Below are positions 1,716 through 4,337 of a stretch of 4,337 nt of DNA, one piece after another. Within the stretch, counting starts at the first letter, position 1, and each line of letters opens with the position of its first letter. A program made the position numbers and the translations under genes. Source of the DNA: a virus (lineage: Duplodnaviria; Heunggongvirae; Uroviricota; Caudoviricetes); IMG/VR virus record IMGVR_UViG_2648501165_000001. The stretch is one strand, 5' to 3'. The notes under the pieces are model-generated. The model was not told the origin of the DNA and made no database searches. It worked only from the letters and a program-made list of their open reading frames with translations.

Positions 1716-2324
1716 AATCTGTTCCGCCCATTCTTCAAGGGATTTCTCCGCATATTCACCAGACAGGCCATCAATCGGATGCGCTTCATTAGCCAACTCT
1801 TCTTTCGCTGACAAAATCATGCGTGTAACGTCGAAAACTTCACGCAAAGACTTATTGATAAATCCGTGATTGAAAGCAGCAGCAAGACGGCTTGCGGTAT
1901 AGTTAATACCCTCGTTGCGAGCCGCCGCACGAATTTCAGCCAGGAAAGCGTCGGTGGCTGGGGTTTCCGTGAAGTTGTCCTCCCAACCGTAGTACTCCTG
2001 ACGACAGAAGTTATTAAATTCCTTCTCCGACTGTTTAAGCTCCGCATTCTCTGCCGCCAGCACCGAAAACTTCTCGTGTGCCAACTTAACAGCCGCATCA
2101 GCCTGCTTAATTGACTCAATCGCTTTCTGTTGGTCTTCGGCCAGCTCCGCTAAATTAGCCTCCAGTTCGGCTATGCGTTCGTTTAATGCATCTCGTTCAT
2201 CCAGTAGCGCCAGCACAACCTGAGGTGTGACTTTCATACGAAATGCCAGCAATTTTTGAGGCGTTGCTACTGTTTCAATTGCTACTGCCGCCTCACGCAG
2301 TGCCTGATAGTCAATTTTGCTCAC
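1695..2324 (-). CDS. Ead/Ea22-like family protein, paralog B (209 aa), mosaic, coiled-coil rich
   Basis: ORF track 1695..2324. The start is GTG at 2324..2322 with AGGAGG (plus 2331..2336) 6 nt upstream; an in-frame TGA lies 15 codons upstream with no alternative start. N-terminus [13 protein letters not shown] is near-identical to paralog A and shares the internal motif VLALLDE(R/L); the rest is divergent and heptad-like ([27 protein letters not shown]). It ends ...RKGGNQ*, with the stop overlapping the GTG of paralog A. Confidence 0.72.
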
Positions 2325-2341
2325 TGGTTGCCTCCTTTGCG
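2287..2341 (-). repeat. Gene-junction direct repeat, copy 2 (~49-bp core 2293..2341)
   Basis: Minus-strand reading: cgcaaaggaggcaaccagtgagcaaaattgactatcaggcactgcgtga. Same layout as copy 1: RKGGNQ stop, AGGAGG, 6 nt, GTG, SKIDYQ.LRE. Confidence 0.85.
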
Positions 2342-2488
2342 CAACATCGCATTCAGATATTTGTTGTCATTAACAGAACCGAAACTCTTTCTCTTAAGCA
2401 ATTCCTCTCTCGAGGGCATTGGCTTTACGCGTTGGCGAATAATCATTTCTGCCGGAAGAATGCCGGGATTGTATGCAAGTCCTCTCAT
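2321..2488 (-). CDS. Small hypothetical protein (~55 aa) ending in RKGGNQ
   Basis: ORF track gives 2321..2521 (66 aa), but the ATGs at 2521 and 2506 have no ribosome-binding site. ATG at 2488..2486 is preceded by GAGGAA at 7 nt spacing, and that site overlaps the TGA stop (2501..2499) of the upstream 98-aa gene. Predicted product: [55 protein letters not shown]. The start choice is uncertain. Confidence 0.55.
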
Positions 2489-2498
2489 GGTAAATTCC

Positions 2499-2795
2499 TC
2501 AGTCATTACTGATAGCGCCATAGCGTGAGCGGTAATTACGCAGGCGCGGGTCGATATATTCAGGGAATTTGTCTATTGTCGCTTTTCGCAACGGTCTCAT
2601 TGCTGTTTCGTTTGTTCGGTCCTTCTCCTGTTTTAGCGCGAGTTGTATATCGCGTCGGTACATCCGTTCTGCTTTTGTTTCTGGTGTCAGAGCAAGAAAC
2701 GCGTCGAAATTGTTTTTGATATTTTCCAGCACCTCCGCCTTGGAGCTACCGGAGCAGTTGCGCGGGTCATCCGCACCATACAGAGGCGCTGGCAT
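2499..2795 (-). CDS. Hypothetical protein, 98 aa; sits immediately downstream of the recombination genes
   Basis: ORF track 2499..2795. ATG at 2795..2793 has a weak AAGG about 9 nt upstream and lies 23 bp downstream of the SSB-like gene stop. The gene is co-directional and tightly packed with its neighbours. No recognisable motifs by eye. Confidence 0.6.
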
Positions 2796-2818
2796 AATGG
2801 GAGCCTTATTTTCAGTAA

Positions 2819-3406
2819 TCAGAAAGGAGGGTAATCGTTCTGGCTGTAACCATAATCATCTGCATGATTATGGCTTACGTTTTTAGAGCGATTGTCTTTA
2901 TCTTTGAGGCTGGCAACCATGTTGGCGATAGTTTCTGGTTGCTTGCCTTCTGCCTTTTCTTTAAGGGTTTGACCTGTTTGTGCAATAAACGGGATGCGTA
3001 TTTCCATCTGGTAGCTGTCTGCGCCAGTCTTTTTGTTTGTGGTTAATACTTTCTGGAGCACTAACCCGATTTTCTTTCCATGAAATTCAGGTGCAACAAA
3101 TTTACTGGCGGAAACCATATGTTGCGTTAATTGTCCAATCCCGGCACACCCCATCATGGCGTGAACGACATTTGCGCCAAATTTGTTTTCCGTGCCGTCA
3201 TTTTTCTGAACACAGACGCTAAGATACTGGATTTTACGTCCGTCGTCGGATTCTCCAGAAAACTCAATAAATTTGGCTCCTTTTTCTGATTGCTTGAGTT
3301 CTGCTTCAGTAATGGTAATTATGTGAGCGCCAGTTTCGTTAATAAAACCACCTTGCCCTGCGGTCAGTGCTGCTTCTTCGTTATAAGTAAAAATTACGTT
3401 GCTCAT
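2819..3406 (-). CDS. Putative phage ssDNA-binding protein (cognate partner of Sak4), 195 aa, with an SSB-like C-terminal tail ...DDYGYSQNDYPPF
   Basis: ORF track 2819..3406. Its ATG (3406..3404) overlaps the Sak4-like stop in an ATGA arrangement, with AAGGAA upstream. The C-terminus is acidic/aromatic and ends in P-F, like the partner-binding tails of bacterial SSB (DDDIPF) and T7 gp2.5. Adjacency to a Sak4-like ATPase mirrors the HK620 Sak4/SSB pair. The SSB assignment is an inference; the N-terminal region is not a canonical SSB by eye. Confidence 0.65.
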   Translation of the reverse strand: MSNVIFTYNEEAALTAGQGGFINETGAHIITITEAELKQSEKGAKFIEFSGESDDGRKIQYLSVCVQKNDGTENKFGANVVHAMMGCAGIGQLTQHMVSASKFVAPEFHGKKIGLVLQKVLTTNKKTGADSYQMEIRIPFIAQTGQTLKEKAEGKQPETIANMVASLKDKDNRSKNVSHNHADDYGYSQNDYPPF

Positions 3407-4083
3407 GCGGCGTTTTCCTTAATTTGATGAACATTATTGATGCCGTAGTAATCACAAACAGTGGCATCGACGAAAGAGAGATCGTTATCAATCTCATTGG
3501 AATCAAACATTCCCATTGGGGATTTAACAGTGTCTGCACCGTTGTTTTTCGTGGTGAAAAAGAACTGGTCATCGCGGGTAAGAGTGCGAAGAACTATAGT
3601 AAACATGCCTTCGACAGTGATTTTCTCGTCCAGCATTTTGCCGATAGTCTTCATTTTCACGCGCCCCATAGGGGTTTCTTCGGTGTGCGCAAGAAAATAG
3701 ACTCTCAGGTCATCAGGCGCATCCTGTGCAGCCTTAATGACCTCCCATGCGTGGCGGCCTATCTCAGTAAATTTATCAAACGATTTTTCTTCTGAGCGGC
3801 GCATAAACTCATTGCTCATCACATACTGGAAGTCATCAACAATAACGATTCTTTTTCCGTATTCGTGAGCACGCTTAATTACAGCAACTATTACGTCCCA
3901 TTTGTCAGTGGTAACTACGGTTCCTTTTTTTGCTCTGGCATCCCATGCAAGCCAGTTTTTTGATTTAAATGGTAGCGGCTTGCCTATTGGTTTTATAAGT
4001 ATTGCTTCCTCTGGATTGATATTTCTCATGCTGGTTGATTTTCCGGTGCCAGACTCACCGAGTATTAATATCGCAGTTCCCAT
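3403..4083 (-). CDS. Sak4-like (AAA_24-type, RecA-core) P-loop ATPase; phage recombination protein, 226 aa
   Basis: ORF track 3403..4083. GAGGTGA Shine-Dalgarno (plus 4087..4093) lies 3 nt upstream of ATG 4083..4081 and overlaps the stop of the upstream small gene. Walker A GESGTGKST is at residues 9-17 and a Walker B-like hydrophobic run RIVIVDD follows. Size and motif layout are typical of phage Sak4/AAA_24 proteins. Confidence 0.85.
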   Translation of the reverse strand: MGTAILILGESGTGKSTSMRNINPEEAILIKPIGKPLPFKSKNWLAWDARAKKGTVVTTDKWDVIVAVIKRAHEYGKRIVIVDDFQYVMSNEFMRRSEEKSFDKFTEIGRHAWEVIKAAQDAPDDLRVYFLAHTEETPMGRVKMKTIGKMLDEKITVEGMFTIVLRTLTRDDQFFFTTKNNGADTVKSPMGMFDSNEIDNDLSFVDATVCDYYGINNVHQIKENAA

Positions 4084-4091
4084 AATTCACC

Positions 4092-4280
4092 TCAGAATGG
4101 TAATTCGGACGGGGAGGGAAGAAATTCGCGCTCATTCATGCGCTCTCTTTGTGCCTGCCATAAGCAAAGTTGTTTCTTTGATTTATCTCCCGCTTTACGC
4201 CAGTAACGAGCCTCAGCAATGTGATACTCTCTTTTTAATCGACTTAACTCTGGGGTTTTCGCCAGTTCTACCGGAATCAT
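4092..4280 (-). CDS. Small basic hypothetical protein (~62 aa)
   Basis: ORF track gives 4092..4292 (MEVKMIPVEL...). The second ATG (4280..4278) has a strong GGAGGT (plus 4285..4290) 5 nt upstream and forms an ATGA overlap with the stop of the partial upstream gene, so I prefer it. Product: MIPVELAKTPELSRLKREYHIAEARYWRKAGDKSKKQLCLWQAQRERMNEREFLPSPSELPF, rich in K and R. Confidence 0.55.
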   Translation of the reverse strand: MIPVELAKTPELSRLKREYHIAEARYWRKAGDKSKKQLCLWQAQRERMNEREFLPSPSELPF

Positions 4281-4337
4281 TTTGACCTCCATTTTCTGTA
4301 GGCTTCTACGGCTTCACGAAACATCTTTTCATCGCCA
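4277..4337 (-). CDS. 3' end of an upstream co-directional gene (C-terminal residues ...GDEKMFREAVEAYRKWRSK*), start beyond the right window edge
   Basis: The minus-strand frame is open from the window edge to TGA at 4279..4277, which overlaps the ATG at 4280 in an ATGA arrangement. This is the same coupling pattern seen throughout the window. Only 20 codons are visible. Confidence 0.45.
   Translation of the reverse strand, partial: GDEKMFREAVEAYRKWRSK

Follow-up and report, generated by a model that had tools for sequence, protein, structure and literature searches.

A divergent allele of the anti-RecBCD gene abc2 ends an HK620-type phage recombination module

We find that a 98-codon open reading frame (ORF) in a 4,337-nucleotide stretch of tailed-phage DNA, hereafter the window, is by profile and pairwise comparison a true homologue of P22 Abc2 and, as judged from gene order, closes an early-left (pL) Rec module of the HK620 type, hkaM-sak4-ssb-abc2, as its last recombination gene. 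The encoded protein belongs to the Abc2 family and retains conserved residues of the RecC interface, its gene occupies the operon position of abc2, and no Exo- or Gam-type genes accompany it. We consider it very probable that the product is a functional member of the family that hijacks RecBCD rather than blocking it; by homology we infer that this allele binds RecC and abolishes the response to Chi, and that its biochemical effect serves a cooperation with Sak4 and the single-strand DNA-binding protein (SSB). The gene itself is already known, being named in GenBank and RefSeq within a known module type, and because Abc2, its RecC complex and the Sak4-SSB-Abc2 module have all been published, little is added biologically. 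For annotation, the ORF should be named abc2 (phage anti-RecBCD protein), and positions 2321-4292 form a Rec module of the HK620 type that Stx-converting phages of enterohaemorrhagic E. coli carry.

A preliminary description of this DNA had reported a 98-aa ORF at 2499-2795, of no stated strand, co-oriented with and 23 bp downstream of a Sak4/SSB gene pair. The ORF is real and lies on the minus strand, its coordinates in the ORF list taking in the stop codon, and the spacer that separates it from the equally oriented SSB gene (2796-2818) is exactly 23 bp long and contains an AAGG motif resembling a Shine-Dalgarno sequence. A scan of this spacer gave no promoter-like or minus-strand terminator-like site, nor were promoter-like sites found anywhere in the window or minus-strand terminator-like sites between its genes. 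Across 58 distinct homologous genes the abc2 frame shows a pN/pS of 0.46, with 59 of 123 variable sites at third codon positions, a pattern that indicates purifying selection on this frame. With an in-frame pN/pS of this size and a family match at E 1.5e-35, the sequence comparisons identify abc2 as something other than a chance ORF.

The Abc2-like character of the product, first proposed from synteny and size, holds at the level of sequence. Residues 1-98 align with positions 1-97 of the 97-position Pfam profile PF11043 (Anti-RecBCD_p2; 121.7 bits against a cut-off of 25, at the E-value given above), and the full 98 residues match PHROG 656, 'abc2 anti-RecBCD' (phrog_656; E 5e-45, 153 bits). 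The suggested comparison with P22 Abc2 was run with phmmer against all PDB chains and returns that protein as the only match (8b1t_A / 8b1u; E 3.7e-32), end to end, with residues 1-98 on 1-97; the RecBCD-bound structure of P22 Abc2 was solved by cryo-EM (PDB 8B1T/8B1U; eLife 2022, PMC9836394). By tblastn, the product is 61.2% identical to P22 abc2 and 86% identical to abc2 of Salmonella phage SE1. A match to an unrelated family, which would have spoken for a different identity, was looked for in the Pfam and PHROGs profile searches and not found, and the same collections gave no match to the Gam family. A search of 5.8 billion proteins yields 105 clusters, every one of them PF11043, and all the named ones are from Escherichia, Salmonella or Shigella. 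The length given for P22 Abc2 in the preliminary description, about 97 aa, is right (97 aa); the P22 gene order, however, has abc1 between erf and abc2.

Escherichia phage TL-2011a, which comes from an outbreak strain of EHEC O103:H25, matches the window at 99.7% identity and encodes an identical protein (AEW24510.1), named 'anti-RecBCD protein 2 family protein' in GenBank; the literature searched contains nothing on this phage. By tblastn, Abc2 proteins of at least 99% identity occur in 51 phage records, mostly Stx1a/Stx2a-converting phages, and of 5,426 complete E. coli genomes, 1,101 (~20%) carry abc2-like DNA, for which the PGAP product name is 'phage anti-RecBCD protein'. That the best-matching record, TL-2011a, is a partial, prophage-derived genome, and that rearranged fragments occur among the related loci (L045, L047), could be taken to mean that the abc2 ORF is an unexpressed or decaying remnant of a defective prophage. 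We regard this as extremely improbable: the ORF is uninterrupted over its full length and has a ribosome-binding site, the surrounding module is intact, abc2 is under purifying selection, and the protein is 100% identical in 51 phage records that include complete, inducible-type Stx phage genomes.

All genes of the window lie on the minus strand, in the order hkaM-like, sak4, ssb, abc2, DUF2737, two Ead/Ea22-like genes, Mom-like and DUF551 (Table 1), and in TL-2011a this string is found downstream of N, in the early-left operon below N and cIII-type genes. The two genes immediately upstream of abc2 are the Sak4/SSB pair that the earlier reading had named; their products match phrog_2872 and phrog_743 and are 99.1% and 99.0% identical to HkaL and HkaK, respectively, of HK620, whose Sak4 and cognate SSB have been characterised experimentally and whose hkaJ is recognised as the abc2 of a Sak4 module (PMC5928155). 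The hkaM-like gene, annotated in GenBank as a CDS of 189 nt, is 96.8% identical to HK620 HkaM over 62 aa. Downstream, the longest DUF2737 ORF (2321-2521) overlaps abc2 by 23 bp; the true CDS is probably 2321-2488, starting at M12, because a GAGGA ribosome-binding site precedes this codon and the family match begins at residue 12. This start lies 10 bp past the abc2 stop codon, and the GenBank CDS is 168 nt long. A PADLOC scan of the module genes gave no meaningful match to a defence system.

Table 1. Features of the window, listed from abc2 upstream and then downstream
Feature	Coordinates	Strand	Description
abc2	2499..2795	minus	98 aa, ATG start; 'window-type' allele of the Abc2 family (PF11043)
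Shine-Dalgarno-like AAGG	2804..2807	minus	8 nt 5' of the abc2 ATG; found by eye from the sequence
ssb	2819..3406	minus	SSB of HK620 HkaK ('SSB-2') type, cognate partner of Sak4; phrog_743 at 3.3e-66
sak4	3403..4083	minus	core-only RecA/Rad51-like single-strand annealing protein; phrog_2872 at 1.5e-108, AAA_24
hkaM-like	4092..4280 (longest ORF to 4292)	minus	first module gene; likely start M5 at 4280; phrog_1723
DUF2737 (probable CDS)	2321..2488	minus	55 aa; HK620 hkaI / P22 orf56 homologue; PF10930 at 3.5e-30 from residue 12
Ead/Ea22-like genes, tandem pair	1695-2324 and 1105-1731	minus	coiled-coil (PF13935), profile match
Mom-like	620-1108	minus	162 aa; PHROG 1384 'Mom-like DNA modification protein', E 1.3e-43
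DUF551	2-601	minus	at least 200 aa, runs off the left end; C-terminal DUF551 domain, E 1.2e-15

The first gene of the module, as its longest 66-aa ORF (4092-4292), matches phrog_1723, which is labelled 'recombinase', and shares 35% identity with the HK022 gp42 / Sf6 gene 29 frame, which precedes erf in modules of the Erf type. The counterpart in HK75 is an unannotated frame (L090 1079-1258) that overlaps HK75_33. According to a 2026 preprint it is HK75 Gp33, and not Abc2, that triggers P2 OLD; Gp33 was considered as a homologue of the hkaM-like ORF and rejected, BLASTP to the annotated HK75_33 having found nothing. No function is transferred from Gp33, because the 35%-identical homologue, the HK022 gp42 counterpart, lies in the overlapping unannotated frame, and since this gp42-type frame overlaps HK75_33, the attribution of the P2 OLD trigger is ambiguous between the two HK75 products.

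P22 Abc2 and the window protein (97 and 98 aa, respectively, the latter with an additional Y80) are alignable end to end at 61% identity, and both contain the CSG loop, E39, K41, R47, P68 and a C-terminal motif beginning D-P-R-L-R. In P22 as in the window, abc2 comes last in the early-left recombination module, with DUF2737 behind it, whereas the upstream genes differ, arf-erf-abc1 in P22 and hkaM-sak4-ssb in the window, where no abc1 homologue is found. HK620 (hkaM-hkaL(sak4)-hkaK(ssb)-hkaJ(abc2)-hkaI) has the same gene order and spacing as the window, with identities of 97% for HkaM, 99% for Sak4, 99% for SSB and 90% for HkaI, but just 61% for Abc2. HK620 carries the P22-type abc2 allele, while the centre of the window protein is of the other allele class (R13N, Y30F, K44R, H48R and further changes), and the swap between HK620 and the window is confined to codons 12-78.

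This swap was delimited by aligning window positions 2499-2795 with the HK620 gene (L091, 3789-4085) and 58 other abc2 genes. Between the classes, codons 12-78 are near-saturated at synonymous sites (pS 0.55) with a pN of 0.26 and a dN/dS of 0.33, whereas hardly any difference, synonymous ones included, separates them in the first 11 and the last 20 codons (pS 0.10 and 0.03, respectively). Across the family, identity to the window protein is bimodal, at either 80-100% or 50-65%. Because the gene ends are near-identical and the centre is deeply diverged, mosaic recombination joints lie inside abc2, and the sequence comparisons thus define two anciently diverged alleles in which the RecC-contacting centre behaves as an exchangeable intragenic cassette, swapped between Rec modules that are otherwise almost the same, whatever the recombinase type or the host genus. 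Positive selection between the alleles was considered and is not supported at a dN/dS of 0.33. It is unlikely, in our estimate, that the dimorphism is kept by selection and that the window-type allele differs from P22/HK620 Abc2 in specificity or in evasion of defence; candidate selective agents would be host systems that guard RecBCD or sense Abc2, or variation in RecC or PpiB.

We then compared the window protein with the 15 Abc2 residues that touch RecC in the P22 complex (PMC9836394, Fig. 4 source data). Eight of these are identical (A3, C14, S15, G16, L36, E39, K41 and R47) and two are changed conservatively (K44R and H48R); three that contact RecC through the backbone only have a different side chain (I33F, M34L and E45M), and side-chain contacts are altered at the remaining two (R13N and Y30F). 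Among 108 aligned, distinct full-length Abc2 members, all residues of the window protein at these positions, N13, F30, R44 and R48 included, are majority or co-majority states, and conservation reaches 93-98% at E39, K41, R47 and in the C-S-G loop. P68, which in P22 Abc2 fills the active site of PpiB, a prolyl isomerase of the host (PMC9836394), is kept in the window protein (codon CCG at 2594-2592) and is invariant in 108 of 108 members. An AF2 model of the product predicts an extended segment at 1-18, helices at 19-35 and 41-72 and a low-confidence tail, a layout compatible with the cryo-EM description; fold searches with this model were uninformative. P22 Abc2 is disordered in cryo-EM past residue 52-66 (PMC9836394), and the C-terminal third that is absent from the maps, residues 67-98, is the most conserved segment in the family alignment (mean 0.91). 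The tail motif is kept even in a 38%-identical homologue from MagusPhagus, though that protein is without the C-S-G loop. This conserved tail and the majority allele, which is unstudied, are the only openings that we see for further work.

What counts against a P22-like function for the window protein is its identity to P22 and HK620 Abc2 of only 61% and the loss of the R13 and Y30 contacts. A rival proposal is that the window-type allele has diverged in function, binding RecC differently, acting on another host target or evading systems that sense P22-type Abc2. The remodelled centre (R13N, Y30F, H48R and ~38 other changes), the bimodality of the family and the confinement of the divergence to codons 12-78, where the modelled RecC contacts lie, are compatible with such a change, as is the gap between the 97-99% identity to HK620 of hkaM, sak4 and ssb and the 61% of abc2. 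Yet a dN/dS of 0.33 with a pS of 0.55 describes an old divergence under purifying selection and no recent adaptive burst, the invariant contact residues and P68 are kept, and both alleles occur in E. coli and in Salmonella phages with the same partner genes. We consider a diverged function very unlikely and retain the hijack of RecBCD as the preferred reading for this allele.

Lambda Gam and T7 gp5.9, like Abc2, are small early phage proteins that counter the anti-phage action of RecBCD, but they obstruct the DNA-binding site and shut down every activity of RecBCD; Abc2 instead attaches to RecC, and helicase and nuclease remain active (PMC9836394). The P22 protein binds RecC far from the DNA entry site, and RecBCD DNA binding, unwinding and nuclease activity are not inhibited in vitro; the complex is unresponsive to Chi and degrades the 5' strand constitutively, without productive RecA loading, and the recombinase-loading step of the hijack model is unproven even for P22 (PMC9836394). 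By homology, the extended N-terminal segment and two helices of the window protein would attach to host RecC at its Chi-recognition ('inactivated helicase') domains, P68 would engage host PpiB, and the conserved C-terminal tail probably extends towards the RecB-RecC interface. RecBCD modified in this way would keep its unwinding activity and lose both Chi response and RecA loading, degrading the 5' strand as an enzyme in the constitutively Chi-modified state would. The hijacked enzyme may thereby spare phage DNA ends from destructive degradation and yield a 3' single strand for annealing by Sak4 and SSB, which would offset the missing phage exonuclease.

To place this model in the context of the family, we scanned 80 IMG/VR loci that encode Abc2 relatives with reference proteins. 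None of the 80 encodes lambda Exo, Bet or Gam, or Rac RecE or RecT, within 6 kb of abc2, and these genes are likewise absent from 24 kb of TL-2011a and from 50 kb of the Stx2a phage Stx2_EH0505, which carries an identical module. Directly 5' of abc2 are Sak4 with SSB-2 (28 loci), Erf with gp40 (24), Erf with SSB-1 (16) or Erf with Abc1 (6); four further loci are truncated, and two are rearranged prophage fragments with a DnaQ-like ORF before abc2. The hijack model fits this distribution, in which abc2 comes after an annealing protein and SSB or Abc1, to the exclusion of Exo, Bet, Gam, RecE and RecT; a 2025 survey of lambdoid Rec modules likewise reports no nuclease gene in the modules of P22 and HK620 (PMC12315714). 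The window-type allele is seen with all four partner sets and the P22-type allele with Sak4 as well as Erf. A specific contact between Abc2 and the recombinase is unlikely, because the same allele is found with unrelated annealing proteins, and this mixing of alleles and partners weakens the recombinase-loading part of the model more than the part in which Abc2 secures a supply of resected ends. The survey thus gives modest support to an Abc2 that acts on RecBCD whatever annealing protein the phage has, and it bears on the recombinase-loading step. Co-variation of Abc2 allele with recombinase type was looked for among the 80 loci and not found.

The same exchange of alleles among non-homologous recombinases, which implies that no recombinase-specific cooperation is required, could also be read as a sign that Abc2 inhibits RecBCD in the simple, protective manner of lambda Gam or T7 gp5.9; it would turn the enzyme off so that rolling-circle and linear phage DNA survives, and would have no role in Sak4 recombination. 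The family name, 'anti-RecBCD', suits this view, and HK620 abc2 does not stimulate Sak4 oligonucleotide recombineering (PMC5928155). The recombineering result does not bear on the hijack model, however, since oligonucleotides need no end resection. Against simple inhibition stand the uninhibited DNA binding, unwinding and nuclease activity of RecBCD in the presence of P22 Abc2, together with its RecC site far from DNA entry (PMC9836394), and the finding that 0 of 80 abc2 loci have an exonuclease of their own within 6 kb, as expected if RecBCD activity is needed. In phage lambda, by contrast, gam adjoins exo and bet, and tblastn finds no Gam in the Abc2 loci. We judge simple inhibition decidedly unlikely.

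Chi sites are not enriched in the two carrier genomes, with 0 in the 24 kb of TL-2011a and 2 in the 50 kb of Stx2_EH0505; base composition predicts 0.5 and 1.4, and the Chi density of the host 5 and 11, numbers too few for a test of avoidance. The window alone contains 0 (0.09 expected) and is too short to inform. The absence of Chi enrichment agrees in direction with PMC3784561, although the counts here are small.

DUF2737 follows abc2 in 79 of the 80 loci, with a 10-bp gap in 57. It is found in 264 phage records, compared with 232 for Abc2, and also in phages of Serratia, Enterobacter and Cronobacter, genera absent from the organism names listed for the Abc2 matches, and these differences rule out a strict co-dependence of the two genes. 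The literature searched reports no function for DUF2737; that it might be an unrecognised cofactor is a weaker corollary of the reading in which the Abc2 dimorphism is kept by selection.

Several minor observations concern the rearranged loci and the genes at the left of the window. In L045, a complete 182-aa ORF of the DnaQ-like 3'-5' exonuclease type (5436-5984) directly precedes abc2, with a C-terminal remnant of SSB further 5' (by eye), and in L047 a 90-aa C-terminal remnant of such an ORF (5712-5984) is recognisable by eye from the translation; both loci have an oppositely oriented portal-like ORF further upstream, and L047 also a terminase-like ORF (by eye). The tandem Ead/Ea22-like genes of the window have a common N-terminal start, 'SKIDYQ.LRE', and the GenBank CDS of the first is shorter. 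The Mom-like ORF, which falls below threshold against Pfam PF25680 Mom (24.4 bits versus 27.1), may be an early-left gene for DNA modification or anti-restriction. Inside this ORF, 10 consecutive N at 634-643 mark an assembly gap, and the window is ~183 bp shorter than TL-2011a across the match. In TL-2011a the DUF551 region is annotated as two separate CDSs.
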